Assembly (NCBI GenBank): GCA_022143435.1
Contig: GCA_022143435.1_3941.1
Direction: 5' to 3' (one strand)
DNA length: 64,000 nucleotides
Origin: a phage
The translations under genes were made by a program, and so were the position numbers. Below, piece after piece: positions 40,815-64,000 of the stretch (positions are counted from its first letter, which is position 1; the number at the start of each line of letters is the position of its first letter). The notes under the pieces were generated by a model. It searched no databases. It was not told where the DNA came from and saw nothing but the letters and a program-made list of their open reading frames with translations.

Positions 40815-40835
40815 TAAGCACCTCCGCAAATAGAA

Positions 40836-41036
40836 TTATTCAGAGTCTGTAGCAGTCTCTTCTTTCTTAACTTCGAACTTTGCATCAACAGCGTCAAGAA
40901 GTGCATCCATAGAGGCTTCTTTGATATCAATACCTGTTGCTACAGATAATCTGTCTGCAATTGCCATGATAGTGTTCTGCATAAATTCTAGCTTTTTGTT
41001 AGCTTCATAAAGTTCTTTATAAACGGTCTCGCTCAT
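40836..41036 (-). CDS. hypothetical small protein upstream of terminase
   Basis: 66-aa ORF. Confidence 0.4.
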   Translation of the reverse strand: MSETVYKELYEANKKLEFMQNTIMAIADRLSVATGIDIKEASMDALLDAVDAKFEVKKEETATDSE

Positions 41037-41258: not shown

Positions 41259-41334
41259 TGGAGAATCCGAAGGGACTCGAACCCTTATAAACCTGTTTTG
41301 CAGACAGGCACATATCCATTTCTGTCACGGATTC
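41259..41334 (-). tRNA. tRNA-Cys (GCA)
   Basis: Manual cloverleaf; 7-bp acceptor stem; CCA encoded. Confidence 0.65.
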
Positions 41335-41339
41335 AAAAT

Positions 41340-41432
41340 TGGAGGAAGATACCAGACTTGAACTGGTACACCGATTTCTCAGCTACTGGCAGTTTAGCAA
41401 ACTGCTCCCTTACCTTTTAGGGTTAATCTTCC
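41340..41432 (-). tRNA. tRNA-Ser (GCT), class II
   Basis: Long variable arm; anticodon loop TTGCTAA. Confidence 0.6.
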
Positions 41433-41433
41433 A

Positions 41434-42168
41434 TTATTTCTGTAATGCGCTCTTCATTTCTGGTGTTGCAATAGTGTCAATTACACCAGTTTTACAGGCA
41501 TCATCAAACCAGTCTGGTAAGATACCTGCTAAGAACCCATTGATATTCGTTTTAAGGTACTCTGCAATAAGGGCAGCTTCTTCTTCAATCATCTGCACAA
41601 CTTCATCTGCATAAGCTGTAATCTTTGAGATACCTTCATTAATCTTACTGACAGCTTGGTTAGCTAAATCAGAAACAGTATCAAGACCCTTGTCAATAGC
41701 GTCTTGTAAGTCACTTAATACATTGTTAACACTCTCTAGTGTACTGTTAATCATATCAATAGCTTTTTGACCATATTCTGTAGCAACACCCATAATACCA
41801 CTGAACGGTGTACAACCAACTTGTTCTCCTGCTGCACCCATAACATTGGAATATCCCTTTGCTACCTGCATACGTGATGAAAACTCATCAATAGATTTTT
41901 GACCGTAGTCTGTCAGGGTCTTAGTAGTTGCTGTAGTGCTTGTAAGGCTTGTTGTAAAGCTGTTTAGAAGGACTGTTGTAAGTCCAGCAGCAACAAGTTT
42001 CTCCTGCATTGTAGGGTCTGTTACAGAACTAATAGAGCTTACAAGTGATGTAGAAGCAGCTACGGTTCCACCGAGAACTGCTGCACCAGTAATAAGTGGG
42101 TTAGAAAACCCTTTACCGGTTTTTAAGAGATTAAAAATCTCCTTACCTTGTTCTGTCATCTCTTTCAT
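41434..42168 (-). CDS. hypothetical protein embedded in tRNA array
   Basis: Start moved to ATG 42168 (AGGTG upstream) because the track start overlaps tRNA-Phe. Confidence 0.4.
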   Translation of the reverse strand: MKEMTEQGKEIFNLLKTGKGFSNPLITGAAVLGGTVAASTSLVSSISSVTDPTMQEKLVAAGLTTVLLNSFTTSLTSTTATTKTLTDYGQKSIDEFSSRMQVAKGYSNVMGAAGEQVGCTPFSGIMGVATEYGQKAIDMINSTLESVNNVLSDLQDAIDKGLDTVSDLANQAVSKINEGISKITAYADEVVQMIEEEAALIAEYLKTNINGFLAGILPDWFDDACKTGVIDTIATPEMKSALQK

Positions 42169-42184
42169 TAAGCACCTTTGAAAT

Positions 42185-42260
42185 TGGTAGTCCAGTGGGA
42201 TTTGAACCCTCTTCTCATGTTTTTCAGACACGCGCTTTAACCATATAAGCTACTTGGACT
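42185..42260 (-). tRNA. tRNA-Phe (GAA)
   Basis: Manual cloverleaf; anticodon loop CTGAAAA. Confidence 0.6.
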
Positions 42261-42266
42261 ATAAAT

Positions 42267-42342
42267 TGGGGTGACCTACGGGATTTGAACCCGTATAGAC
42301 CATGTTCACAGCATGGGTCATTACCATTTATGATAAGGCCAC
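42267..42342 (-). tRNA. tRNA-His (GTG)
   Basis: Anticodon loop CTGTGAA. Confidence 0.6.
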
Positions 42343-42377
42343 ATTTAAGGACTCTCGTAAGAACCCTTAGAAGTGGC

Positions 42378-42448
42378 AGCGGCATAAGGATTTGAACCTT
42401 AATAGGACAGCTTCAGAGACTGTTGCATTGCCAGTTATGCTATACCGC
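42378..42448 (-). tRNA. tRNA-Gln (CTG)
   Basis: Anticodon loop CTCTGAA; CCA not encoded. Confidence 0.5.
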
Positions 42449-42454
42449 TAAATT

Positions 42455-42533
42455 TGGTACTCCATATCGGATTCGAACCGATACATAACACAGATTTTAA
42501 GTCTGGCCTCTCTGCCAATTGGAGTAATGGAGC
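42455..42533 (-). tRNA. tRNA with anticodon TAA (Leu by anticodon, short variable loop)
   Basis: Good acceptor and T arms; 4-bp anticodon stem; class-I-like length. Confidence 0.45.
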
Positions 42534-42535
42534 AT

Positions 42536-42611
42536 TGGCGGGGGATGTTGGAATTGAACCAACTTCTTCGATTTCAAAGACCGAGGTTTTAACCTTGTAA
42601 ACTAATCCCCT
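42536..42611 (-). tRNA. tRNA-Gln (TTG)
   Basis: Anticodon loop CTTTGAA. Confidence 0.5.
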
Positions 42612-42619
42612 TTAAATCT

Positions 42620-43177
42620 TTACTTTCTTAGTGGATGAATAAAGAATGCCAACATAACTCTTTCCCTTGAGAATGCTCTTTCTTCTGGGACAACACTTTT
42701 TAGCTTCCACCCAATATAAATTCTCCAGTAGAACTGTTTACCAAAGATTTTAATTGATGGGATAAAAGCGAATAATCCCCAAGCATTGCTGTTCCACATT
42801 AGGAGATAACCTGTCTGATTATCTTCAGGGTTAGAACTTACGTTGATATTACCTTTCCACTTAGTAACATCTTTTACATCTCTTCCTAATACATGGTAAG
42901 AGAAGTTATAAGCTTTGTTTCTCCAGAGCCATCCGACTCTTTGCATGTAGACACCTAGTTTACCAATCCATCTAATATTAGCCCATCTTTTAACGTGACC
43001 TTCATCACCATCAATTGGGTTGTCATATGTCTCCATCCATCTGAATCCGAAAGGTAAGTGTCCTTTCTTCTCACTGTAGAATGGAACTACAAAAGGTGCT
43101 AAGATAACTGCTAAGATTGCTGCAAATGGCTCTAACAAAGCTAAGAAAATCCATGAAGCATACTTCAAATATCTCAT
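42620..43177 (-). CDS. membrane protein embedded in tRNA array
   Basis: N-terminal hydrophobic segment WIFLALLEPFAAILAVILAPFVVPF; Trp-rich. Confidence 0.45.
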   Translation of the reverse strand: MRYLKYASWIFLALLEPFAAILAVILAPFVVPFYSEKKGHLPFGFRWMETYDNPIDGDEGHVKRWANIRWIGKLGVYMQRVGWLWRNKAYNFSYHVLGRDVKDVTKWKGNINVSSNPEDNQTGYLLMWNSNAWGLFAFIPSIKIFGKQFYWRIYIGWKLKSVVPEERAFSRERVMLAFFIHPLRK

Positions 43178-43196
43178 CTAAATAGCCTCTTTAAAT

Positions 43197-43272
43197 TGGC
43201 GCAGGATAAGGGATTCGAACCCCTATTAACAGCTTCGTAGACTGTTGCTCTATCCATTTGAACTAATCCTGC
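43197..43272 (-). tRNA. tRNA-Arg (ACG)
   Basis: Anticodon loop CTACGAA. Confidence 0.65.
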
Positions 43273-43277
43273 AAAAT

Positions 43278-43355
43278 TGGTGTTCCAAGACGGATTCGAA
43301 CCGTCACTAGTACAAGGTTTGAGCTTGCATCCTCTGCCAATTGGGATACTGGAAC
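43278..43355 (-). tRNA. tRNA with anticodon CAA (Leu by anticodon, short variable loop)
   Basis: 5-bp anticodon stem, loop CTCAAAC. Confidence 0.45.
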
Positions 43356-43356
43356 A

Positions 43357-43431
43357 TGGTACTCACTAAAGGACTTGAACCTTTTTCTTCATCTTGTAAG
43401 GGTGGTGTTTTACCATATAAACTAAGCGAGT
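43357..43431 (-). tRNA. tRNA-like, anticodon TAC (Val?), weak anticodon stem
   Basis: Good acceptor/D/T arms; anticodon stem has two C-A mismatches. Confidence 0.4.
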
Positions 43432-43527
43432 GTGAAAGAGGTCTGAAGTTGTGCCGCTAACTCAACTCCGTGGAATTTGTTACGGTCTTCAGTTGACTCA
43501 AAGCGGTCTTTCACTTGACCTCTAAAT
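43432..43527 (-). ncRNA. tRNA-sized structured element, not a canonical cloverleaf
   Basis: Perfect 7-bp terminal stem AGAGGTC/GACCTCT enclosing about 73 nt; no standard T-loop. Confidence 0.25.
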
Positions 43528-43603
43528 TGGTGCTCCCACAAGGATTCGAACCCTGATAAGTTGCTTACAAGGCAACCGTAATAGCCAATTATACGATAGG
43601 AGC
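43528..43603 (-). tRNA. tRNA-Thr (TGT)
   Basis: Anticodon loop CTTGTAA. Confidence 0.6.
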
Positions 43604-43610
43604 ATTAATT

Positions 43611-43685
43611 TGGAGCATCCAGAGGGAATCGAACCCTCAACCTCAGTTTGGAAGACTGTAATTTTCCCGTTTAAACTATGGATGC
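43611..43685 (-). tRNA. tRNA-Gly (TCC)
   Basis: Anticodon loop CTTCCAA. Confidence 0.6.
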
Positions 43686-43691
43686 ACTAAT

Positions 43692-43767
43692 TGGTGGAGT
43701 CACTGAGAATTGAACTCAGTTCCCAAGTTTGCAAAACTCGAATTTTAACCATATAAACTATGACCCC
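43692..43767 (-). tRNA. tRNA-Ala (TGC)
   Basis: Anticodon loop TTTGCAA. Confidence 0.6.
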
Positions 43768-43773
43768 ATTTTT

Positions 43774-43849
43774 TGGTACAGGTGGAGGGAATTGAACCCA
43801 TCGTCTTACTGATTAAGAGTCAGCCGCATAACCATTTTGCTACACCTGC
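43774..43849 (-). tRNA. tRNA-Lys (CTT)
   Basis: Anticodon loop CTCTTAA; register slightly ambiguous. Confidence 0.45.
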
Positions 43850-43856
43850 ATTAATT

Positions 43857-43934
43857 TGGTAGGAGACAAGGGATTCGAACCCTCAAACACCAACTTCTAA
43901 GGATGGTAGGTTTACCAATTACCGTCAATCTCCC
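43857..43934 (-). tRNA. tRNA with anticodon TAG (Leu by anticodon)
   Basis: Anticodon loop CTTAGAA, 4/5 stem pairs. Confidence 0.4.
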
Positions 43935-44190
43935 ATTAAATCTTTTTAGAGAACTTCTAAGAACCTAAGCAACAAGGTTCCACAACAAGCTGTAATAACC
44001 TTAGAAGCCCTCTAAAAAGACCTAAAAAGGTCTTTGCATAGTCTTGTTTAATCCGGTGACTAGAACCTTTGGAGAGCTTGATATTATCTCTTCTCCGTGA
44101 CACCTACTAGGTGCTTTACTGTGCGTGTACGACAATACACTAGGGATACCAAAGCAACATCCGAATGAAGCTTGGCTTTAAATCTTATTA

Positions 44191-44269
44191 GGCGGTAAGT
44201 AAAGGAGTCGAACCCTCACCGTATCTCTACAGTGGCAACTGTTTTCAAGACAGTTTGGCTACCATTAGC
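44191..44269 (-). tRNA. tRNA-Ser (TGA), class II
   Basis: Anticodon stem ACTGT/ACAGT, loop CTTGAAA, long variable arm. Confidence 0.55.
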
Positions 44270-44293
44270 CGCTACCTACCCCTAATAAGACTT

Positions 44294-44376
44294 TGGCATG
44301 GGACGGAGGAGTTGAACCCCTTTGAAACGGTTTTGGAGGCCGTTGCTCATGCCTTAGAGTCTTAACATCGCCCCAT
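44294..44376 (-). tRNA. tRNA-like with Trp-type anticodon loop CTCCAAA (CCA)
   Basis: Anticodon arm matches E. coli tRNA-Trp loop; D region about 7 nt too long for a standard cloverleaf. Confidence 0.35.
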
Positions 44377-44518
44377 ACTATAATTCGAAGCTTACCGTAT
44401 TATCTCAACACTGTAAAGCCCCTTCTCAGATTATTTACATGTTCTGGAAAACATGAGATACAGACCACCTCCCTACAGGAAGACCCGCTTAGGTCGTCTA
44501 AGTAATCTGCTAACTAAT

Positions 44519-44595
44519 TGGTACACCCTACAGGATTCGAACCTGTAACTAACGATTTAGAAGACCGTTGCTCTATCCAATTGAACTAAGGGTGC
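44519..44595 (-). tRNA. tRNA-Arg (TCT)
   Basis: Anticodon loop CTTCTAA. Confidence 0.6.
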
Positions 44596-44798
44596 ATTAA
44601 TCTTTAAAGACTCTCTTAGAAAGCCCTTAAAGATGCCCACCTTATTAATCATACCGTGGGCTAGTACGCCAAATTCTTTGATGAGGGATTGGAAGACCTC
44701 ACTGGTGTTTAGCCTATCAAGCTACTGCCAGAAAAACATTGTCGTTTGCATTTATTTTAAATTTGCAAAATAGACGCTACGCAACGAAAACTAAGGTT

Positions 44799-44827
44799 AC
44801 TATAAAGTAGTCACATCTCAATGTCAA
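44799..44827 (-). promoter_or_regulatory. sigma70-like promoter inside tRNA array (TTGACA-N17-TATAGT)
   Basis: Read on minus strand; would drive the tRNAs at lower coordinates. Confidence 0.5.
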
Positions 44828-44842
44828 CAACTTTATTGAAAT

Positions 44843-44917
44843 TGGTTGTAGGTGAGGGTATCGAACCCTCTTCTAACGGTTATCAGCCGTTTGCATTACC
44901 ATTTATGCTAACCCACA
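44843..44917 (-). tRNA. tRNA-Ile (GAT)
   Basis: Anticodon loop CTGATAA. Confidence 0.65.
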
Positions 44918-44919
44918 AT

Positions 44920-44996
44920 TGGAGGTTCAGATGGGAATCGAACCCACATTCATAGGGCTTATGAGACCCTTGCATTACCTTATCTGCGACTGAACC
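44920..44996 (-). tRNA. tRNA-Met (CAT)
   Basis: Anticodon loop CTCATAA. Confidence 0.6.
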
Positions 44997-45000
44997 ATTT

Positions 45001-45076
45001 TGGTAGAAGTGGAGGGATTCGAACCCATCGCCTGTCAGATTAAAAGTCTGCCGCATCACCATTCTGCTACACTTCC
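45001..45076 (-). tRNA. tRNA-Lys (TTT)
   Basis: Anticodon loop CTTTTAA. Confidence 0.55.
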
Positions 45077-45081
45077 ATTAA

Positions 45082-45229
45082 ATTATCTTTGTAGATAAGC
45101 TACCCAGACTTGCTTAAGGTCTGTAGCGATGTGCCTTTTTGGGTTTAAATCTAGAATTTACCCTTTCACCCTTTGTGGTCGCATACTCACAGGTAAGCTT
45201 AATAACTTATCTACAAAGATAATTACCAG
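45082..45229. repeat. 18-bp inverted repeat (ATTATCTTTGTAGATAAG ... CTTATCTACAAAGATAAT) flanking about 110 bp
   Basis: Read directly; inside a tRNA-free gap of the array. Confidence 0.7.
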
Positions 45230-45504
45230 ACCGTTGTTTATCATCTTAAGTGCTACCATTACACCAACTCGACATCTGCCGAGTGAAGGAATCGAACCTT
45301 CGCCTTTTCTTTACCGAGAAATAGATTGTTTAAGTTTTGCTGTAAACGGTCTTCTGTAAATTTGTTGAGCCAGACCAAGTTTTAGATTTTCAAAATTAAA
45401 TTGGCTTGAAATTTCATACGTTCTTGCTGTATTTGGTCTTCTGCTCCTTTAAAGGATACTCGTAAGAACCCTTTAAGGGAGGGGCTAAATAGCCCTCTCA
45501 AAAT

Positions 45505-45583
45505 TGGCGGTTACGAAGGGATTTGAACCCTCATCATCTCCCGTGACAGGGGAGTATTTTAACCAAATTAAACTACATAACCT
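45505..45583 (-). tRNA. tRNA-Asp (GTC)
   Basis: Anticodon stem CTCCC/GGGAG, loop CTGTCAC. Confidence 0.65.
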
Positions 45584-45587
45584 TTAT

Positions 45588-45675
45588 TGGTGTGCCGTGT
45601 AGGAGTCGAACCTACCGAGTCTCAATGACAAGGGATTTACAGTCCCCACCGCTACCATCTACGGGATAACGACAC
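45588..45675 (-). tRNA. tRNA-Tyr (GTA), class II
   Basis: Anticodon loop CTGTAAA with long variable arm. Confidence 0.6.
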
Positions 45676-45684
45676 ATTTAAATT

Positions 45685-45761
45685 TGGCGGTTAGTCAGGG
45701 ATTCGAACCCTGTGCCATTCGCTTAACAGGCTACCGCACATACCTTATGTGCTTCCTAACC
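45685..45761 (-). tRNA. tRNA-Asn (GTT), imperfect anticodon stem
   Basis: Anticodon loop CTGTTAA; good acceptor and T arms. Confidence 0.45.
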
Positions 45762-45838
45762 TTAATACATTGCCAGACCGTGTTTTTTCTTTTATCCGCA
45801 AAAAGTAGTTTGTTGCTGAATACGGTCTTCTGCAAAAT

Positions 45839-45915
45839 TGGAGGCGGGTGCAGGAGTCGAACCTGCCGATACCATGCTAATGAGACATGTGAGACGCCCT
45901 TTCTCTATACCCGCA
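45839..45915 (-). tRNA. tRNA with anticodon CAT (second Met, initiator or Ile-lysidine type)
   Basis: Anticodon loop CTCATTA. Confidence 0.5.
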
Positions 45916-46006
45916 ATTCTTAATGACCAGACCAAATCTCTTCTTTGTCCGATTTCGTGTCAGATGAATAAGATTAAACTTGCTGTAATTGGTCTTCTGT
46001 CAAAAC

Positions 46007-46084
46007 TGGCGTTCCAGAAGGGATTTGAACCCTCAAATATCCACTTTGAAAGAGTGGTGACTTTACCATTTTGTCTACTGGAAC
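46007..46084 (-). tRNA. tRNA-Glu (TTC)
   Basis: Anticodon stem CCACT/AGTGG, loop CTTTCAA. Confidence 0.65.
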
Positions 46085-46091
46085 ATTAATT

Positions 46092-46168
46092 TGGTCTCTG
46101 TTGGAGGACTTGAACCTCCGGCCTTACCGTCCCAAACGGAACGCTCTACCAATCTGAGCTAAACAGAG
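46092..46168 (-). tRNA. tRNA-Pro (TGG)
   Basis: Canonical D arm GCTCAGATTGGTAGAGC; anticodon loop TTTGGGA. Confidence 0.65.
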
Positions 46169-54756: not shown

Positions 54757-55210
54757 AGAAGTAGTGCAAAGAGCAATGCTTGACAATTCTACTAAAGATG
54801 AGATGTACACAGAAATTTGTGATAAGTTGAACTGTTCAAGACATGCTGCTAAGGTTCTTGTACATTGTTTTATCTGGGAATGCTCAGAAGCTTATATGAA
54901 ACACGTAGCTTTTGAGAGTTCTCATTTACTCGGTGATGCAAAAATAGGTGTAGCACTAAAAGAGCCTGAGATGAAAACAGTACCTAAAGTTGGTAATGTG
55001 TATAAACTAAAAAATTTTATTACAGGCGAGATTGTTGCAGAAGGTGAAGTGCAACAGGTTTATCATGATGGTAAATATCTGTTTAAGATATTCGAGTATG
55101 ATAGTCGTTACAGACACTTATGTGGTATTACATTTTTAGTTTCAGAGGATGACCTCATCAAGAACAATAGTAATAAATTCGCAGTACCAGAATATCAAGT
55201 TTTACGATAA
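54746..55210 (+). CDS. hypothetical protein
   Basis: 154-aa ORF. Confidence 0.45.
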   Translation: MKIKEVVQRAMLDNSTKDEMYTEICDKLNCSRHAAKVLVHCFIWECSEAYMKHVAFESSHLLGDAKIGVALKEPEMKTVPKVGNVYKLKNFITGEIVAEGEVQQVYHDGKYLFKIFEYDSRYRHLCGITFLVSEDDLIKNNSNKFAVPEYQVLR

Positions 55211-55223
55211 TGGTGTGATATCT

Positions 55224-55772
55224 ATGGAAAAAGATAACTTAAAAGAAGTTGAAGGTAACTACCTAGTACTTGACTGGAGTGATGTTCGAGAAGCACTCTC
55301 TGAAGAAAATCTTGACTGGTTCGAACAAATTATCTTTGCAGTACGGCATAACCGAGAAGTTGAAAATGGTAAAGAGCCACTTGAAGGAATCTTTGTAGAA
55401 AGGTCTTATCCGTTCTATGAAGACACTTTACAGAAAGTTAAAATGTACTTCAGACAGAAGAACCGTAAAGTGGTCACTATGGTATCTCTTGGTGGACAGA
55501 GTATGTCTGTGATGGAAGATATCAACCCTAAGAGACCGAGTAAAGGCGTTTGTATAAAAATCACAGGTCATGAAGAGTACATCTCAGTGGATGATTTTAG
55601 TGTGTTCTGTAATGGTTCTGCTGTCTTTAATGGGTTTCACTATGATATCCGAGTTTACCCAATCAAGGGTGATGATATCATGATGCAGATATTCGATAAT
55701 AACAACGGATTCACTCATTTTTATCAGACAACTAAGTCATCCCTAAAAACAGTTCTGGAAACACTGATTTAA
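55224..55772 (+). CDS. hypothetical protein
   Basis: Start ATG 55224 (track start 55149 overlaps the previous gene). Confidence 0.45.
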   Translation: MEKDNLKEVEGNYLVLDWSDVREALSEENLDWFEQIIFAVRHNREVENGKEPLEGIFVERSYPFYEDTLQKVKMYFRQKNRKVVTMVSLGGQSMSVMEDINPKRPSKGVCIKITGHEEYISVDDFSVFCNGSAVFNGFHYDIRVYPIKGDDIMMQIFDNNNGFTHFYQTTKSSLKTVLETLI

Positions 55773-55783
55773 AATATCTTAAG

Positions 55784-55808
55784 AGCCTCCTTAATTGGGG
55801 GCTTTTTA
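55784..55808 (+). terminator. rho-independent terminator
   Basis: AGCCTCC-TTAATT-GGGGGCT followed by TTTTT. Confidence 0.7.
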
Positions 55809-55969
55809 CTTTTATAAAATTTTATCGGTTGTCCCAACCTCTGGGTCACCATTATGTGTGAACAAAATATCTACCCTTCTTAACAACCTTCTTAATCTTA
55901 CTCTCTATATATAGTTATATAGTACTATATAGTATCTTAGTATCTATCTAGTGGTCTTAATAGCCCCTC

Positions 55970-57420
55970 TGTATAAGCCTTCTAACAAGCCCTCTAACAA
56001 GCCTTCTAAACAACCTATACAAGCACCTTAACCACCTCTCTATACCCTCTTAGAAGCTCCTATACACCTCTTAATCTCTAGGTTATCTGTGTTACTTAAC
56101 AGTAACCCATTATGTTAGCTATGACACTCTCTATAGGTGTTCACTAGGTATTACTAAGCCTCTATATAGACTGTTTTAACAAGCTTAACAGGAATATCTT
56201 CACAGACCTTATCTCACAAGGTCTAACACGGTACTAACAAGGTATCTTATAAGCCTGTTATTGCCTGTATTTTTAAAAGGCTGTATAGGTAATTATTCAG
56301 AATCTTAAAATTTTTATAAAATAGGACTATCAAGTCCTTTTTTTAGGGTCTTTGAAGGAACTGAAAAATATCTGTAGAAGATGTATATCTGCTTGGTAGC
56401 CCTTAACAGCTCCCTTACAAGTACTTTGCAAAATTTTAAAATATCCTTAACAATCTCTTAACAGCTCTCACATCTTCTTAACAACTCTTCAAAGGTCTTA
56501 ACAGATTCTTAACAGAACTAACAAGGCTGTAACAGTTTTCTAGGGATTGGTAACAATACCAATTAACAAGTGCTGAATAGTCTTTACAGAATCTTAACAG
56601 ATGACTAACAAGAGCTAAGTAGTTAAATGTTAAGAGTTATTTTGTTAAGATAATTAACAAGTCTCTAACAAGTGTTTAATCTTTTTAACAAGCTATTAAC
56701 ATGGTCACTACTCTTTTCTTATCGTTCCCTTTGCTTCTTAGTGATTCTCTAAACATACCTCTTAAAAGCTCTCTATAGCTCCTTGTAAGCCCTTTTAAGC
56801 CTCTTCCTAGTATTTACCCCCCAACTGTACAGATAGCTCTTTATAGGGCTTTACAGGAGCTTTTAAGGCTATGTCAAAGACTCTTACAAGGCTTTTACGT
56901 GGTCTTAACAGAGATTTAACAAGGGGCTAACAAATCTCTAACAAGCATAACTATGTAGGGATTGTTAAGAAATTGTTAAGAAAATGTTAAGGGGGCTAGC
57001 ATTTACGTAACTTTATAGCCTCTTTTACGTAACTTTGAAGTAACTTTATAGCCCCTATAACATACTTTTAAGACACTACCAATAGGATTCGATAGATTCC
57101 TATCTCATAGCCCTTTTTAATAGTTCACAAGAATACTAACGAGATGATAAAGCTTACACCCTTATAAGATTCTTTTAAGTCTCTGAGAAGCTTTATAAAG
57201 GGCTTTTTAGGGTGAGTTAATGCAATCCCTTAAGTTAGGTTGATAAGGCTGTTATAGAGCTTTATAGAGCGTTTAAACGGTTGCCCTTCCCTTTCGGGTT
57301 ATGGGCTTATATTTAAGTTGATTTGATAAGAGGTTATAGCGTAGACTATAGAGTTATTGCTTTTAAGGTCTAGTAAGATTCTGGAAAGGTGATGGAAAGA
57401 GATTGTATAAGGATTCGATA
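55970..57420. repeat. ORF-free repeat-dense region with YTAACAR heptamer array and other short direct repeats
   Basis: At least 25 copies of (T/C)TAACA(A/G) between about 55975 and 56960, three inverted copies TGTTAAG at 56963-56995; no ORF of 60 aa or more in any frame. Confidence 0.8.
56323..56345 (+). terminator. terminator-like hairpin within the noncoding region
   Basis: GGACT-ATCA-AGTCC followed by T8. Confidence 0.55.
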
Positions 57421-57425
57421 GACGT

Positions 57426-57450
57426 AAAAAAAGCCCCTTTAAATAGGGGC
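57426..57450 (-). terminator. rho-independent terminator ending the early minus-strand gene array
   Basis: GCCCCT-loop-AGGGGC followed by T7 on the minus strand. Confidence 0.7.
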
Positions 57451-57489
57451 TGTTCAGGTATCTGGGGCTATTTAGCCCCGCTGCGTCGA

Positions 57490-57738
57490 TTAGTTGTAAC
57501 CTTGTTTATTGTAGTACAGGGAAACAATCAAGTCACCCCAGTAATGATAGTGATGCTCGTCGTTTAATGCCTCTTTTACAGCGTCTTTCCAGAAGTCATC
57601 AGTAGGGTTATAATCTGGGATAACTTGCTTGATAACTGTCTTCACTAATGAAAAACACTCATCAGTTCCACCAATATCAAATTTAACGTCCAGAGTATAA
57701 CAGCCATAAGCATTGACAGTTGCGCGGATAGTTGCCAT
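57490..57738 (-). CDS. small early protein, hypothetical (type A cassette upstream)
   Basis: ORF with conserved GGAG-N8-ATG. Confidence 0.5.
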   Translation of the reverse strand: MATIRATVNAYGCYTLDVKFDIGGTDECFSLVKTVIKQVIPDYNPTDDFWKDAVKEALNDEHHYHYWGDLIVSLYYNKQGYN

Positions 57739-57800
57739 TTTAGAATCTCCAGTTTAGGACTTTATTTAGTGGGGAGGTTATTCCCTCCCCGTTGATGAGT

Positions 57801-57829
57801 AATTTACTGCATGTTGGCGTATGTTGCAA
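57801..57829 (-). promoter_or_regulatory. sigma70-like promoter of type A cassette (TTGCAA-N17-TAAATT)
   Basis: Read on minus strand just upstream of conserved hairpin 57771-57790. Confidence 0.5.
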
Positions 57830-58067
57830 GTCTTTTTTCGTTGTATTTTGTCAGAATCTCACAAGATAAAACATCATATTTTGTAACCGCTTTGCCTTTG
57901 TCGAGGTCAAAAAAGCCAAATGCTTTACCATCTTTGAATCCGACAACTTCATAAGATTCTTTGATGATTTCACCATTGAATAAATCGCTTTCGATACGGT
58001 GAAACAGTGCTACATCTTCTTTGTCAGTTGCAATTTGTAAAAGTGTGGTTAATTCTACGTTTTCCAT
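57804..58067 (-). CDS. small early protein, hypothetical (type A cassette upstream)
   Basis: ATG with GGAG RBS. Confidence 0.5.
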   Translation of the reverse strand: MENVELTTLLQIATDKEDVALFHRIESDLFNGEIIKESYEVVGFKDGKAFGFFDLDKGKAVTKYDVLSCEILTKYNEKRLATYANMQ

Positions 58068-58099
58068 CTTGATAACTCCAGTTTAGGACTTTATTTAGT

Positions 58100-58120
58100 G
58101 GGGAAGGTCATTCCCTCCCC
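58100..58120 (-). repeat. type A cassette hairpin core GGGGAAGGTCATTCCCTCCCC (one of 7 copies)
   Basis: Copies at about 57771, 58100, 58697, 59259, 60817, 61682, 63827; each about 25 nt upstream of a GGAG-N8-ATG. Confidence 0.85.
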
Positions 58121-58133
58121 GTTGATTGACAAT

Positions 58134-58664
58134 TTACAGACTTTTGATTATCTCGTCAATATCTTTTTCAATGTCTTTTAAAGTTTTTTCTAAGTTCTTG
58201 ATATTAAATGATAAACCTTCACCAAGAGTCTTAGAGTAACCACTAGGACGTAGATTATACAGTTTAATTTCTTCCACTTTAAAGAGACTAACTAACTCAC
58301 CGTTTACATCATAAGCCATTGAAACAGTATTTGCAGGTGCATTGTAAAACTTGTTTAGTGACTTGATAGAGCGTTCATAAGCCATTTTATAACCGTTTAA
58401 AAGGTTTTTAACGTGGTTGTGAACGTTTTTACACTCATCTAGATAAATCTCTAAGAATAACGGTAATAATTCCGCTACAGCTTGCATAAAGTGAGAGACT
58501 ACAACGGTTGAGACATTACGACGATGAACGTAATAAGCCCCGTTTTCTGATTTGGTGATTGTTGCGAAATGTACCCCATTACAACGGAATTCGTATGTAT
58601 CTTTTACAGGCTTAGACATTACAGCATTTGAACGAATGAAGTTGATAGCTTGAAATTTGTTCAT
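58134..58664 (-). CDS. early protein, hypothetical (type A cassette upstream)
   Basis: 176-aa ORF. Confidence 0.5.
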   Translation of the reverse strand: MNKFQAINFIRSNAVMSKPVKDTYEFRCNGVHFATITKSENGAYYVHRRNVSTVVVSHFMQAVAELLPLFLEIYLDECKNVHNHVKNLLNGYKMAYERSIKSLNKFYNAPANTVSMAYDVNGELVSLFKVEEIKLYNLRPSGYSKTLGEGLSFNIKNLEKTLKDIEKDIDEIIKSL

Positions 58665-58883
58665 TTTAGAATCTCCAGTTTAGGACTTTATTTAGTGGGG
58701 AGGTTATTGCCTTCCCGTTGATTAGTAATTTACTTGTTTTGATAGTTGATTGCAAGTAATTTTTTGAGCTTATCTATAAAGAATCTTTTAAGTGAATCCC
58801 TTTTAGATAACCCCCTCGAACAAAGTTACCAATGTCAATGGGTATTGTCAACACTTTTTTAAAAGTTTTTTGTAAGTTATTGA

Positions 58884-59225
58884 TTAACTGATGAATATTT
58901 TTTCAGGTTTTACATAGCTGATACGCTGACTTTTTAGCAGGTCATCCCAGATTAGCGCGGCGATATGGGAGTAACCGGATTCACGTAAAAGCTTCATTGT
59001 TTTACTTCTCGTTTCAAAACGGCTTGCGTAGTACTCACTATTTAAAACCGTTTTATTCCCTTCGTTATCTACATGGATAATCTGCATCACTTGAAAGGGG
59101 CTTGTGTCCTCGCCTTTGTTCCACTGTTCAAAGTATTTTAGGCACTGCATAGGTGACATCTTATCACTTACTTGAGTTGACCAAGATGAATTTTCTTTAT
59201 CGGTAATTACGGTTACATAAGCCAT
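58884..59225 (-). CDS. small early protein, hypothetical (type A cassette upstream)
   Basis: 113-aa ORF. Confidence 0.5.
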   Translation of the reverse strand: MAYVTVITDKENSSWSTQVSDKMSPMQCLKYFEQWNKGEDTSPFQVMQIIHVDNEGNKTVLNSEYYASRFETRSKTMKLLRESGYSHIAALIWDDLLKSQRISYVKPEKIFIS

Positions 59226-59316
59226 TTTTGAATCTCCTAGTTTAAGGATTTTACTTAGTGGGGAAGGTCATTCCCTCCCCGTTGATTGACAATTTACAGA
59301 TTTTTATCAGGCTTGT

Positions 59317-59550
59317 CTAGTCTTTTTCAATGATAATTTCATACTGACCATCTACGCTGTCAAAATAGATACCGTCTTCATCTTCTGTCTTAAAGTAACA
59401 TTGTATATCATCACTAGCGGGATAGTCTTGTCTTGCTATCTGGCAAACTTGAATAGCATTTTCTTTACTTCCTGTAAACTCTTCAAGCCCTTTAAAATCA
59501 CATGAATGACCATTACAGATGGAAAGGATGAGGTAAATGGTTGTAAGCAT
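59317..59550 (-). CDS. small early protein with hydrophobic N-terminus
   Basis: N-terminus MLTTIYLILSICNGHSC. Confidence 0.45.
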   Translation of the reverse strand: MLTTIYLILSICNGHSCDFKGLEEFTGSKENAIQVCQIARQDYPASDDIQCYFKTEDEDGIYFDSVDGQYEIIIEKD

Positions 59551-59564
59551 GATTTAAGCCCTCT

Positions 59565-59583
59565 AAAAGCCCCTACAAGGGGC
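59565..59583 (-). terminator. terminator-like hairpin
   Basis: GCCCCT-TGTA-GGGGC followed by TTTT on the minus strand. Confidence 0.5.
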
Positions 59584-59616
59584 TGATTAGTGTTTATAAG
59601 GTGATTGCATAGGTTT

Positions 59617-60159
59617 TTAGAAAAAGCTCTTTAAATCCTCTTCTGCAATGTTTCCTGTCAGTGTATCCATGATGTCACAAAAAACCTGAATACTGTCCGA
59701 CTGTTGAACACTTTTAGCAAGAAGCTCCAGAGACTCATCAAGATAGTTTAAATTTGGGTTATCCAATGAAGGAAGACAAAAAGGTGAATACATAGCGTTA
59801 AACTCTGTTGTATAGACCTTTTTAATCCAATTTACATCAAAGTACTCTGTAAAACTTGCTACACTCGACATATTATCACAAGAATAATCATCATTTAGCT
59901 CATCCTCTGGAATATCGAGTTCTAAGATAACAATATTTTGAGTCTTCATCTGAAAAGCTGCGGTGATAGTGGCATTGCCTAAAGCTTGCTGGATACCTTC
60001 AGAGATTATTTCTTCCTCATCGTCGCCATAGATTTTATTTTCTGGATACACGTAAAAATTGCCGTCCATATCCGAACAATTCCATGCGCCTGATGGTTTA
60101 TCACCGTTATTAATCAGGTTGAGGAAATTTTCTTGAGTAGTTCCGTGATAGCATTTCAT
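59617..60159 (-). CDS. acidic early protein, hypothetical (type B cassette upstream)
   Basis: 180-aa ORF. Confidence 0.5.
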   Translation of the reverse strand: MKCYHGTTQENFLNLINNGDKPSGAWNCSDMDGNFYVYPENKIYGDDEEEIISEGIQQALGNATITAAFQMKTQNIVILELDIPEDELNDDYSCDNMSSVASFTEYFDVNWIKKVYTTEFNAMYSPFCLPSLDNPNLNYLDESLELLAKSVQQSDSIQVFCDIMDTLTGNIAEEDLKSFF

Positions 60160-60246
60160 TTTTGAATCTCCTAGTTTAAGGATTTAGTGGTAAAGCTCTT
60201 TATCTGGGGCTTACTTTATCGAACTATAAGCCCCTTGTAAAGTACT

Positions 60247-60495
60247 TTATTTAACTTTCTTTGAGAAAATTAGTTTAACTGCAACCGTAGGAACCTCGTC
60301 AGCGATTGTAACCAGCATCACTTTTTGAGTGACCAACTTATAACCGTTCTTTGCAGCGTATGCGGTAAAACGGTTGACATTGTAACTATAAGTTTTTGGT
60401 GTGTTATCTGGCATGTGGTAAATGAAAGGTTTACCCAAATTTTCTTCTTGTGTCAATAATCTACAGGTATCGGGAATGTTAAAGTAGTTCATCAT
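60247..60495 (-). CDS. small early protein, hypothetical (type B cassette upstream)
   Basis: 82-aa ORF. Confidence 0.5.
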   Translation of the reverse strand: MMNYFNIPDTCRLLTQEENLGKPFIYHMPDNTPKTYSYNVNRFTAYAAKNGYKLVTQKVMLVTIADEVPTVAVKLIFSKKVK

Positions 60496-60553
60496 TTTTA
60501 GAATCTCCAGTTTAGGATTTAGTGGTAAAGCTCTTTATCTGAGGCTTAAGTTA

Positions 60554-60784
60554 TCAACTTTTAAGCCCCTTGTAAAGTACTTTATTTGTTATTTTGACAA
60601 CTTTTAAAACTGCAAGATAGCCTAAGCAATAAGAATCACCGAAGAGAGTCCTACCCATGAAAGAATCCTCTTTGATATCCTTTGCAGTGACAGTTTTTTC
60701 TACGCCGTGGGAAAGGACTATATCACCAACTTTGATATCTTTGATGTGTGTAGTTTCAATGGTTAAACCATTAATAATAGCCAT
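60554..60784 (-). CDS. small early protein, hypothetical (type A cassette upstream)
   Basis: 76-aa ORF. Confidence 0.5.
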   Translation of the reverse strand: MAIINGLTIETTHIKDIKVGDIVLSHGVEKTVTAKDIKEDSFMGRTLFGDSYCLGYLAVLKVVKITNKVLYKGLKS

Positions 60785-60847
60785 TTTAGAATCTCCAGTT
60801 TAGGACTTTATTTAGTGGGGAAGGTCATTCCCTCCCCGTTGATGTGT

Positions 60848-60876
60848 AATTTAATCTATCTAAAAACCAGTGTCAA
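60848..60876 (-). promoter_or_regulatory. sigma70-like promoter of type A cassette (TTGACA-N17-TAAATT)
   Basis: Consensus -35 with AT-rich upstream tract; hairpin 60817-60837 lies in the 5' leader. Confidence 0.55.
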
Positions 60877-60885
60877 CAAAATTTT

Positions 60886-61290
60886 TTAGAGTTCTGCATA
60901 AATTGCATCACAGATATTACGGAAGTCATGATTAGTCAAATTACGCTGCAACCAAGTGGCGAAAAAGTCAGCGATTGCAAAGTTAGCATCATACTCGACA
61001 GATAGCCACACTTTAACAGCAAATCGGAACATTTTCAAATCTAACTCTTTATTCATTACCTTAGATTTGCCTAACATGTCGGACATTTCATATTGCGCAC
61101 CGTCTAGCGTGATACCTGCTGCAACGTCAGCCAATGAATTTTTTACGTTTTCAACGTCTAAAATAACGCTTTGAATCTTTCCGATAATGTTGTGCAATGT
61201 CTCATCAGGCGCTGATGATGTCATAATGTTGATTCGATTAACGGTCAAACGTGCTTTTAAGGTTGATAATTCACGGTTATTAATAGCCAT
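60886..61290 (-). CDS. early protein, hypothetical (type B cassette upstream)
   Basis: ATG 61290 (track start is TTG); first codons MAI are part of the conserved cassette. Confidence 0.5.
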   Translation of the reverse strand: MAINNRELSTLKARLTVNRINIMTSSAPDETLHNIIGKIQSVILDVENVKNSLADVAAGITLDGAQYEMSDMLGKSKVMNKELDLKMFRFAVKVWLSVEYDANFAIADFFATWLQRNLTNHDFRNICDAIYAEL

Positions 61291-61335
61291 TTTTAAGTTC
61301 TCCAATTTAGGATTGAGTGGTAAAGCTCTTTATCT

Positions 61336-61364
61336 GGGGCTTAAGATATCAACTTCCAAGCCCC
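61336..61364 (-). repeat. type B cassette hairpin core GGGGCTTAA...TTAAGCCCC (one of 6 copies)
   Basis: Copies at about 60206, 60540, 61336, 62409 (variant), 63011, 63357; followed by palindrome TGTAAAGTACTTTA. Confidence 0.85.
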
Positions 61365-61376
61365 ATGTAAAGTACT

Positions 61377-61649
61377 TTACATTAAATGCAGTTTTTTGCC
61401 TTTTACTATAATGTAACTCGATGCGCTATTGCTTTGCACATCCTGATAAATTCTGCGCAAACGTCCTTCGTAGTGTACTTTCCAACTGGTTGGAATCTTT
61501 TTACCGTATCCCGTAGCAGTTTTTTGGAGTCCTGCTACTTGCCAATCTAAGATATGAGTTTCAGCCTGTAAATCCTCAAAGTGCATGACACCATCTACAT
61601 AGTGACGTAGTGTGACATTTAAAGTACGACCGTTGTTAGTAGTATACAT
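61377..61649 (-). CDS. small early protein, hypothetical (type A cassette upstream)
   Basis: 90-aa ORF. Confidence 0.5.
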   Translation of the reverse strand: MYTTNNGRTLNVTLRHYVDGVMHFEDLQAETHILDWQVAGLQKTATGYGKKIPTSWKVHYEGRLRRIYQDVQSNSASSYIIVKGKKLHLM

Positions 61650-61712
61650 TTTGGAATCTCCAGTTTAGGACTTTATTTAGTGGGGAAGGTCATTCCCTCC
61701 CCGTTGATGTGT

Positions 61713-61741
61713 AATTTAATCTATCTAAAAACCAGTATCAA
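61713..61741 (-). promoter_or_regulatory. sigma70-like promoter of type A cassette (TTGATA-N17-TAAATT)
   Basis: Near-identical to the promoter at 60848-60876. Confidence 0.5.
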
Positions 61742-62070
61742 CAGTTTTGTTTTCGTTTGCTCAATTCTTGAACAATTACAGCGTAGTAGTCTTTTAAGTC
61801 ACTGACATTTAAAGCATTTATCAGAGAATTATAATCATCAACTAACTGAAAATTATCTTTGAAGATGTCACTTATCTGATAGGTTTTCGCTTTATATCTG
61901 AAGCTCATCTCTAGCCGCTTTATTTGCTCATCACTGAGGCGCCCTAGAAAGCTTTCTACAAGGCTATTACTAACCTGCTGTGTGATTGCCTTATTTGCTA
62001 GATTATAGGCTTTATATGCCTTATATAGCGCGAAAATGGCAATGATTGCAGTGATACCAGTCATTAACAT
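61738..62070 (-). CDS. small membrane protein, hypothetical
   Basis: N-terminal TM segment ITAIIAIFALY. Confidence 0.45.
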   Translation of the reverse strand: MLMTGITAIIAIFALYKAYKAYNLANKAITQQVSNSLVESFLGRLSDEQIKRLEMSFRYKAKTYQISDIFKDNFQLVDDYNSLINALNVSDLKDYYAVIVQELSKRKQNC

Positions 62071-62360
62071 GGTGTTTCCTCTTTACGTGATACTTTGCCA
62101 TTTACAGTTATCTCATAGGATTCTAATAAATCGCTTTTAGACTTTACAGGACTTTTAAAAGTATCATCATAGATATTAACTTGCAATACAGGTTTTTTAT
62201 ACTCCCTGCAACTGTTCCATAAGCAAATCACTACACGACGGCCTTTTATTTTGCCGTGTAACCATTCCATAACATCATGATTATTCCTTGATGTTTCAAT
62301 GAAATCAATTTTGTTGAGTAATTTGCTTAGATTTTCACGCACTTGATTTGATAATTTCAT
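62064..62360 (-). CDS. small early protein, hypothetical (variant type B cassette upstream)
   Basis: 98-aa ORF. Confidence 0.5.
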   Translation of the reverse strand: MKLSNQVRENLSKLLNKIDFIETSRNNHDVMEWLHGKIKGRRVVICLWNSCREYKKPVLQVNIYDDTFKSPVKSKSDLLESYEITVNGKVSRKEETPC

Positions 62361-62452
62361 TTTAGAATCTCCTAGTTTAAGGGCTTTATTTGATAAATCT
62401 CTTTATCTGGGGCTATCCTACCAGCTTGATAACCCCGTGTAAAGAAATCTAT

Positions 62453-62965
62453 TTAGTTCTTAAAGATATTCATCACTGAATCTTTTAGTGATTCCAAACG
62501 TTCTAATACTTCAGATTCTGCGTCTGAATTGTTCACCTCTTCTTTTAGTCTATCCTCTAAATCATCGCCGTCACTATAGCACCAATCAAAAGCGTAGCCA
62601 ATATAAAAACTGTCTAAAATTGTTTGACCATTTGCATCGACAACTTTCGCGGCAAGGTTGTATTCTGAAGCCTCTAAATCTCTTTCTAATTCTTTCTGTA
62701 AGCTTGTGTAAGCCTCTTTTGATGGATTTTCCCGGCCTTGTTTTGCATAGTCACTTGAAAGCTGTTTAAGGCTGTAATGCAAAGGGGTTGCATATTTAAA
62801 ATCATTACGCTGACAGTTGGGGTTTTTAATAGTCACGCCGCCCTGATGGGTGTCTGTAAACTCCCAATTATCAAGATTATGGCTTGCTTCAAAGCAATTG
62901 ACAGCTTCATAAATAATAGTGAATTTTTCTTTTACAACTTCAAAGGTAGCGTCTACAGTTTTCAT
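62453..62965 (-). CDS. early protein, hypothetical (type B cassette upstream)
   Basis: 170-aa ORF. Confidence 0.5.
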   Translation of the reverse strand: MKTVDATFEVVKEKFTIIYEAVNCFEASHNLDNWEFTDTHQGGVTIKNPNCQRNDFKYATPLHYSLKQLSSDYAKQGRENPSKEAYTSLQKELERDLEASEYNLAAKVVDANGQTILDSFYIGYAFDWCYSDGDDLEDRLKEEVNNSDAESEVLERLESLKDSVMNIFKN

Positions 62966-63053
62966 TTTTGAATCTCCAGTTTAGGACTTAGTAGTAAAGC
63001 TCTTTATCTGGGGCTTAAGATATCAACTTTTAAGCCCCTTGTAAAGTACTTTA

Positions 63054-63311
63054 TCAGATTAAATTGCCAGTTAATGATAAGTGCATTTTGTAACCTTGTT
63101 TAGTGAAAACATTCACTTTACCGAGTGTTTTTACACCTTTAAAAAGGTTATTTGAACTGCGTTTTAGGTTTAACTGTTTATCAACCTTCACGCCCCACCT
63201 TACAGCAGATTGTTTTCCGTTGTCAACCACTTTCCCGCATAACTTTTTAGCCATGATACGAGCGTCATCACGAGTCTTTGCGGTAATTACAACGTTTTTG
63301 ATAATAGCCAT
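63054..63311 (-). CDS. small basic early protein, hypothetical (type B cassette upstream)
   Basis: ATG 63311; shares first codons MAI with 60886-61290. Confidence 0.5.
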   Translation of the reverse strand: MAIIKNVVITAKTRDDARIMAKKLCGKVVDNGKQSAVRWGVKVDKQLNLKRSSNNLFKGVKTLGKVNVFTKQGYKMHLSLTGNLI

Positions 63312-63399
63312 TTTTAAGTTCTCCAATTTAGGATTTAGTGGTAAAGCTCTTTATCTGGGGCTTACTTTATCGAACTATAAGCCCCTTGTAAAGTACTTT

Positions 63400-63621
63400 T
63401 TATTTATCGTAGTAGTAAATTGCTGTCTGTCTCGTAAATTTTTTAGTATTTCTTGTAAGGTAGCAATTAGAGTTTATAGCTGTTTCTACATAGTTGCAAT
63501 AGTCAGCTTCTGATATTCTGGACCATACGCCACAGATTTGCATGTAAAAACGTTTTGCCTTTGTGTTAACGTTAGTTGTAACCATCAATTCGCGACTGTA
63601 AAGCATTATTTCGCGCTCCAT
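63400..63621 (-). CDS. small early protein, hypothetical
   Basis: 73-aa ORF. Confidence 0.45.
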   Translation of the reverse strand: MEREIMLYSRELMVTTNVNTKAKRFYMQICGVWSRISEADYCNYVETAINSNCYLTRNTKKFTRQTAIYYYDK

Positions 63622-63794
63622 TTCTCAAAGAGTTCAGCAGGGAAACGTTCGCTATACCCTTTTAAGGAAAAAGTATTATCTTTGTGGATAGCTTCCACCT
63701 GATAAACCTTATAAGAGCGTATAGTTAGCATTTTGTAAGAGTATTCGTGCTTAATGTTAACCTCATCGCCAACTTTAATTTTTCTTGATGCCAT
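63606..63794 (-). CDS. small early protein, hypothetical (type A cassette upstream)
   Basis: 62-aa ORF. Confidence 0.45.
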   Translation of the reverse strand: MASRKIKVGDEVNIKHEYSYKMLTIRSYKVYQVEAIHKDNTFSLKGYSERFPAELFEKWSAK

Positions 63795-64000
63795 TTTTGA
63801 ATCTCCAGTTTAGGATTTTATTTAGTGGGGAAGGTCATTCCCTCCCCGTTGATGTAAATATTAGATAACCACGTTCAAAGAGTCAATAAAAATTTTAAAA
63901 ATATTTTTGGCAAAACTGTAATGAAACGGGTGCGCACGACTACCACAAAACAGAACGCAAATCAAGAATTATTTTTCAATCCGCTACAAATTTTTCTCTT

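Follow-up and report, generated by a model that had tools for sequence, protein, structure and literature searches.

Within a phage DNA stretch of 64,000 nucleotides (GenBank assembly GCA_022143435.1, contig GCA_022143435.1_3941.1; hereafter the window), a gene-free region at about 55800-57480 contains, as identified by homology, a short exact direct terminal repeat (DTR) at 56395-56996 with non-permuted termini of the T7 type, and the repeat and the DNA to its left carry an array of the heptamer YTAACAR. The region shares 89-93% identity with about 170 genomes of Felix O1-like phages (Felixounavirus), and by this resemblance the window is a Felixounavirus, that is, a Felix O1-like myovirus, its plus strand corresponding to the minus strand of Felix O1. 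We consider it likely that the region is the concatemer junction carrying the ends of the virion DNA, with the heptamers serving as sites, in phase with the helix, at which a packaging protein binds, and the invariant repeat boundaries as the places where the DNA is cut or nicked. The terminal repeat of Felix O1-like phages has been published before, and some records have it annotated; what appears to be undescribed in the published terminus reports, which give length and sequence only, is the heptamer architecture (arrays, phasing and inverted copies) together with the conserved flanks of the cut sites.

The position of the genome ends can be read from relatives whose termini have been determined. 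The record of Escherichia phage Pr103Blw is opened at termini determined by PhageTerm and has a 581-bp direct terminal repeat annotated at both ends, which blastn places from position 56996 down to 56395 of the window. Exact repeats at both ends are also found in the records of CRP22, D4 and SeKF_63, deposited by other laboratories, and the exact DTRs of these four phages (579-613 bp) all start with GCCCCCTTAACA and end with TGTTAAGGGCTACC. A PhageTerm report on Ro111lw gives a 613-bp terminal repeat and T7-type packaging, and the ends of UAB_Phi87 were established from two restriction fragments that proved sensitive to Bal31, followed by run-off sequencing, which yielded a repeat of 608 bp (Bardina et al., 2016). 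This experimental repeat, its sequence taken from the published supplement (the GenBank version is not opened at the genome ends), falls on 56988-56393 of the window. Since the DTR ends of the relatives map to 56395 and 56996, the window would be assembled across the concatemer junction without a break at the ends. A preliminary description of this DNA, made from the sequence alone, had offered a genome terminus or packaging site as one of its alternatives, and this part is strongly supported by the mapped repeats; the replication origin and the small RNA that it proposed alongside found no support. The Felix O1 genome paper inferred short terminal repeats from the genome size, and neither placed them nor mentioned the gap. 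A headful pac site, with permuted and variable ends, was rejected, as the repeats are exact, the ends are identical in independent isolates and the Bal31-sensitive fragments of UAB_Phi87 are discrete.

Both boundaries are strongly conserved in an alignment of 20 relatives drawn from three genera (Felixounavirus, Mooglevirus and Suspvirus). The left boundary, GATGTATATCTGCTT/GGTAGCCCTTAACA (the slash between two sequences marks the boundary here and below), is invariant in 20 out of 20, the right boundary, TGTTAAGGGGGC/TAGCATTTACGTAAC, is nearly invariant, and both of them, as well as the 13-mer TGTATATCTGCTT that lies directly outside the left one, are unique within the window. A further comparison is provided by the Kolesnikviruses, for which short DTRs have been reported from PhageTerm: Hafnia phage SPARTY has a 439-bp repeat of the T7 type, determined by PhageTerm on PacBio reads, and the record of Erwinia phage Roscha1 has been opened at this terminus as well. 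The SPARTY repeat aligns boundary to boundary with the DTR of the window, although little else of the junction aligns, and the pieces that do are syntenic, comprising the left terminator, TGTATATCTGCTT, the first part of the heptamer array and the last 36 bp of the repeat. In SPARTY, TGTATATCTGCTT ends exactly at the left terminus and the last 36 bp of the aligned repeat end GGC/TA at the right terminus; thus two independently determined sets of termini lie on homologous positions. The heptamers of SPARTY follow the same layout with the word TCTTAAC(A/C), and in its right arm another word, TTAGAAG, is repeated 12 times.

The region separates two genes for hypothetical proteins of 207 and 82 amino acids (aa), at 55149-55772 on the plus strand and 57490-57738 on the minus strand, respectively. 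As the preliminary description had stated, no open reading frame (ORF) of 60 aa or more with an ATG, GTG or TTG start lies between them; the longest frames, at 55795-55914, 56330-56431 and, on the edge of the gap, 57403-57567, would encode 39, 33 and 54 aa, respectively. Stop-free stretches in the homologous regions of the 20 relatives are no longer than 69 codons, and the GenBank records of relatives mostly leave the gap unannotated or give only a 'repeat_region', terminators or very short automatic ORFs. An essentiality study by PhageMaP on the Felixounavirus Bas63 deals with genes only and is silent on the intergenic region. The non-coding DNA is more conserved than the flanking coding sequences (about 0.9 versus 0.77-0.84 identity to the window). 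Other compositional claims of the earlier account could be reproduced as well, namely a pyrimidine-rich and G-poor plus strand (6.6% G and 35.5% C at 55960-56080), terminators on both flanks (55781-55806 on the plus strand and 57451-57432 on the minus strand), an internal hairpin at 56323-56338 with a terminator score in either direction, and additional direct repeats (a TTTACGTAACT-type tandem, GTAACTTT three times and TTGATAAG twice). The junction is thus composed of a left arm, the DTR and a right arm, insulated by terminators from two converging gene blocks.

The heptamer is far more frequent in this region than its composition would give. Exact YTAACAR occurs 24 times on the plus strand at 55880-56944, against 36 times in the other 62 kb of the window, and 2000 dinucleotide-preserving shuffles of 55809-57431 yielded 1.12±1.01 copies with a maximum of 5. 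The count of at least 25 first given proved to be 24 exact copies, and the spacing of roughly 8-20 bp gave way to a clustered one, in which all 14 short gaps measure 9-12, 20-22 or 31 bp and the others extend up to 220 bp. By compartment, 7 forward copies lie in the left arm and 17 in the DTR. The three inverted copies (TGTTAAG) were correctly noted and lie at 56963, 56974 and 56985, with an 11-bp period. Heptamer counts in Felixounavirus are broadly alike, with 5-8 in the left arm, 15-19 forward and 2-5 inverted copies in the DTR and 0-1 in the right arm; in Mooglevirus and Suspvirus only 1-3 are found in the left arm and 12-15 forward copies in the DTR. Strains have from 2 to 4 of the inverted units, of the form TGTTAAGAAAT, where the DTR ends, and beyond it the TTTACGTAACT-type units vary in number too (56961-57050). 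Reported DTR lengths differ among phages (569-638 bp) partly because the copy number of the 11-bp unit varies. Such variability is what would be expected if the repeats had no sequence-specific function and had merely arisen in a non-coding terminal repeat by slippage and unequal recombination, and the changing numbers of inverted and right-arm units speak for this explanation. However, most individual heptamer sites are kept in 16-20 of the 20 relatives, heptamer positions are more conserved than the spacers between them (0.954 versus 0.892, p~1e-5), and Kolesnikvirus retains both motif and layout even though the sequence around them has ceased to align, so that we regard a purely neutral origin as very improbable.

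The distances between heptamers are a second line of evidence. Pair distances are periodic at 10-10.5 bp (vector strength 0.6), and a degenerate copy is present 11 bp upstream of many heptamers; spacing in multiples of about 10.5 bp would put the heptamers on the same side of the DNA helix. That a protein binds to them is a reasonable inference from this helical phasing together with the conservation. Phased short repeats could also be thought of as origin iterons, with an initiator binding them and melting the AT-rich tandem at 55906-55952, and the closeness of the repeats to this highly conserved tandem, in a region that is non-coding and strongly conserved, fits such a function. The proposal of a replication origin in the preliminary description nonetheless found no support: no DnaA box (with up to 1 mismatch) and no IHF consensus exists in 55000-58000, and no initiator gene is adjacent, the neighboring genes being without a Pfam match and having PHROG matches only to families of unknown function. 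Moreover, the transcription units converge here rather than diverge, and the cumulative GC skew tracks gene orientation without a distinct switch. Array and DTR match exactly in position, and at the right boundary the heptamers turn round, neither of which an origin requires, and we consider an origin unlikely.

The arrangement of the heptamers around the boundaries fits a packaging signal. At both ends of the DTR the heptamers face inward, and each boundary lies 5-7 nt outside an inward CTTAACA that is preceded by GCC(CC); a single complex, placed in opposite orientations at the two boundaries, could therefore nick opposite strands. In the classical model for T7, nicks in opposite strands at the edges of the repeat are followed by strand-displacement synthesis that duplicates it. 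By analogy, a packaging protein, either the equivalent of a terminase small subunit or an accessory factor, would bind the phased heptamers CTTAACA(A/G) or CTAACAAG of left arm and DTR; once assembled there, it would direct terminase to TGTATATCTGCTT/GGTAGCCC and AAGGGGGC/TAGCATTTACG. Opposite strands would then be nicked at the two boundaries, as in the T7 model, and strand-displacement synthesis after nicking would duplicate the repeat, leaving a copy at both ends of every packaged genome. A bolder version, which we put forward only tentatively, is that the arrays and the flanks TGTATATCTGCTT/ and /TAGCATTTACG constitute a two-sided recognition system kept across Ounavirinae, in which one DNA-binding factor, in a lineage lacking a recognizable small terminase, would mark both DTR edges for opposite-strand nicking. 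The large terminase gene is located at 39213-40829 on the minus strand and is of the T4 type (Terminase_6N/6C), and the large terminases of Felix O1-like phages have been reported to fall in a DTR cluster (Bardina et al., 2016). The only ORF upstream of the gene encodes an acidic protein of 66 aa (phrog_4397) that matched no known family, and the portal protein is of the Mu type.

Several points weigh against this assignment. No recognizable small terminase gene is found next to the large terminase (39213-41036), the distance from the cut to the nearest heptamer is unequal at the two boundaries (7 versus 5 nt) and less clear in SPARTY, and the boundaries from PhageTerm and from run-off sequencing are 2-8 nt apart. 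The placement of the termini in the window phage itself is drawn from homology to its relatives. To our knowledge, the function of the analogous heptamers of T7 is unsettled. The heptamers might also bind a protein unrelated to packaging, such as an end-protection or nucleoid-type factor or sigma-70, or form an ejection-control signal like that of T5. They do lie at DNA ends that enter the cell, T5 is reported to have a cis-acting injection stop signal in a large untranslated part of its terminal repeat, and TTAACA equals the -35 consensus at 5 of 6 positions and repeatedly scored as -35-like. On the other hand, matching -10 partners are missing and the promoter-like matches score only 9 out of 12; heptamers are missing from the right arm, although one of the two DNA ends lies next to it, and their inward-facing layout at both cut sites suits end formation better. 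Binding by such a non-packaging protein is accordingly improbable in our estimation.

A role at the level of RNA has also been weighed, in the form of a small RNA ending at the hairpin at 56323 or of a protein-sponge RNA with UAACA motifs. The terminator-like hairpin (56323-56345) and a fold of 56120-56350 that is somewhat more stable than shuffled sequences (z=-2.55) are in line with it. Rfam searches at gathering and permissive thresholds, however, matched no RNA family in the region; all that they returned were tRNAs in other parts of the window and, below threshold, a Phe-leader on a flanking terminator. The promoter scan gave nothing convincing, most of its matches arising because TTAACA resembles the -35 hexamer; there is no plus-strand promoter in 55810-56320, upstream of the hairpin, and a strong terminator stands just before this interval. 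The phasing of the heptamers with the helix and their inversion where the DTR ends favor a function in DNA, and the small RNA suggested as a possibility in the preliminary description found no support, a non-coding RNA of either kind being extremely unlikely.

Features of the concatemer junction in the window (positions in the 64,000-nucleotide stretch)
Feature	Positions	Strand	Remarks
Intrinsic terminator	55781-55806	+	10-bp stem and T-run; annotated in AYO145A and Moogle; kept in Kolesnikvirus SPARTY
Left arm, unique non-coding, 588 bp	55807-56394		from alignment of 20 relatives; 7 forward heptamers
AT-rich TATATAG(T) tandem, in left arm	55906-55952		conservation 0.92-0.98
C-rich, G-poor tract	55960-56080	+	three 12-bp CTCTAACAAGCC units at 55975-56009
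Hairpin with T-run, terminator-like on both strands	56323-56345		conserved; 50 bp outside DTR
13-mer TGTATATCTGCTT	56382-56394		directly outside left DTR boundary; invariant in 20 relatives
Direct terminal repeat, 602 bp	56395-56996		one copy in concatemer or assembly, two in virion
Main forward array, CTTAACA(A/G) or CTAACAAG with degenerate copies	56401-56703	+	spacing 9-12, 20-22 or 31 bp
Four forward heptamers	56903-56945	+	exact 11-bp spacing
Three inverted heptamers, TGTTAAG	56961-56992	-	11-bp spacing; abut right DTR boundary
Right arm, unique non-coding, 435 bp	56997-57431		adjoins left-hand DTR copy in virion
Intrinsic terminator ending leftward gene block	57432-57451	-	annotated in AYO145A and Moogle

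The terminator on the left is predicted to end the rightward gene block, which would keep transcription out of the terminus region, and the hairpin in the left arm is probably a second insulator. The left arm, the neighbor of the right-hand DTR copy in the virion, exceeds the coding sequences on the flanks in conservation and includes a nearly invariant block at 56140-56260, and the 13-mer TGTATATCTGCTT at its end is a candidate cleavage or nicking signal. Within the DTR, two inverted heptamer-like copies are found inside the main forward array at 56626 and 56641, and the core of the repeat has few heptamers and motifs of the CTYTWWAG type. The right arm is essentially free of heptamers, with none that is strong, and has repeats of its own: four TTTACGTAACT-type 11-bp tandem units (57002-57047), CTTTWWAG, and two occurrences of TTGATAAG followed by GTTATAG. 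An exact 13-nt repeat, AGGATTCGATAGA, is present at 57084-57096, in a strain-variable insertion, and again at 57410-57422, near the right terminator.

An inverted repeat, ATGTTAAGGGGGCTA and TATAGCCCCTATAACAT, extends across the right DTR boundary (56984-56998 with 57047-57063) in most relatives but not in all. A hairpin intermediate has been proposed for end formation in T7, which a repeat straddling the boundary recalls. As a structural signal this candidate was set aside, as its stability when folded as DNA is modest (z=-1.7) and it is lost in SP116 and Sf16; the left DTR boundary, folded as DNA, showed no structure (z=+0.37).

Some observations concern the variability of the region and other parts of the window. 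Insertions of 23-32 bp, which start with TAGG and contain a short palindrome, are patchily present or absent among strains at 56079-56110, 56541-56563 and 57083-57109 (GTTACTTAACAGTAAC, ATTGGTAACAATACCAAT and GGATTCGATAGATTCC being examples), and a related insert, TTGATTCGGTAGAATCTACCTCAT, occupies a different site in other strains; in four strains an insert of 24 bp is present immediately to the left of the DTR boundary. All of these resemble very small elements, either mobile or derived from recombination. To the right of the junction, at least seven copies of a cassette of about 85 nt, with 45 invariant columns, are found on the minus strand at 57730-63860, upstream of small early genes (at about 57730-57815, 58070-58150, 58655-58740, 59220-59305, 60775-60860, 61640-61725 and 63785-63860). 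In each the order is TAAATTAC-CATCAAC, then a GGGGAGGGAATGACCTTCCCC hairpin, then ACTAAATAAAGTCCTAAACTGGAGATTC-AAAATG. Part of the cassette coincides with a 39-bp repeat that contains TTGACA and has been reported from Felix O1, and the leader hairpin is conserved. Judged from its makeup, it looks like a reused module of promoter, 5′ untranslated region and ribosome-binding site. A cluster of 26 tRNA genes lies on the minus strand at 41259-46168, among them two each for Met, Gln, Lys, Arg and Ser, and three for Leu.

Many deposited Felixounavirus genomes, the window included, continue past their physical ends and have no annotation in the 1.7-kb gap, and the ends at 56395 and 56996 allow such records to be correctly oriented and annotated. 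The phased arrays, the inverted copies and the flanks of the cut sites offer mutable targets for the study of end recognition and duplication in a myovirus with short DTRs, and the mechanism of end duplication is only partly understood even for T7. The matter is also a practical one for the engineering of Felix O1-like phages for therapy or diagnostics, in which packaging signals have to be kept intact. If the two-sided recognition system were true, no packaging signal would have been defined earlier for a DTR myovirus, and the duplication of terminal repeats would gain a tractable model.

Compared with known systems, the 602-bp DTR of the window is homologous to the DTRs of other Felix O1-like phages (608 bp in UAB_Phi87, 613 in Ro111lw and 581 in Pr103Blw) and to that of SPARTY (439 bp); the Felix O1-like repeats have the same boundaries and the same place between the genes for the 207-aa and 82-aa hypothetical proteins, and nothing essential differs. 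In the pac site of P1, clusters of the hexamer TGATCA/G lie on either side of the cut, and packaging is headful, with permuted ends and control by Dam methylation. Clusters of a short word flanking a terminase cut are thus common to both, whereas the ends here are fixed and the repeat is exact. Iterons, as in the lambda origin and in plasmids, are usually 17-22 bp long and few, beside an initiator gene and DnaA or IHF sites; the junction resembles them in having phased direct repeats near an AT-rich tract, but neither initiator gene nor DnaA or IHF sites were found here. With T5, the likeness is a cis-acting, repeat-rich non-coding region inside the terminal repeat; the T5 repeat, however, is about 10 kb long and its DNA is transferred in two steps, and ejection in two steps is not known from Felix O1-like phages.

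The likeness to T7 goes further, in that both junctions have a short exact DTR in non-coding DNA and a 7-bp word repeated within and beside it. When the T7 junction was taken as a control, 13 copies of CCTAAAG were found, in one orientation and mostly 13 bp apart, inside and on both sides of the 160-bp repeat; the arrays flanking that repeat are reportedly called SRL and SRR. If a T7-like array is taken to be a 7-bp word with 10 or more regularly spaced copies within and beside the repeat, most of them oriented alike, the heptamers of the window form one. The two differ in the word (CCTAAAG versus CTTAACA here) and in its spacing (13 versus about 10.5 or 11 bp here), and T7 has no inverted heptamers, in contrast to the 2-5 inverted copies at the end of Felix O1-like DTRs. 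The DTR here is fourfold longer than the T7 repeat, and where the promoters A0, phiOL and phiOR adjoin the T7 junction, the present one is bracketed by terminators. As neither the junction nor the word has sequence homology to that of T7, the relationship is one of analogy rather than of family membership, and the T7 junction is the closest functional analogue of the junction described here.

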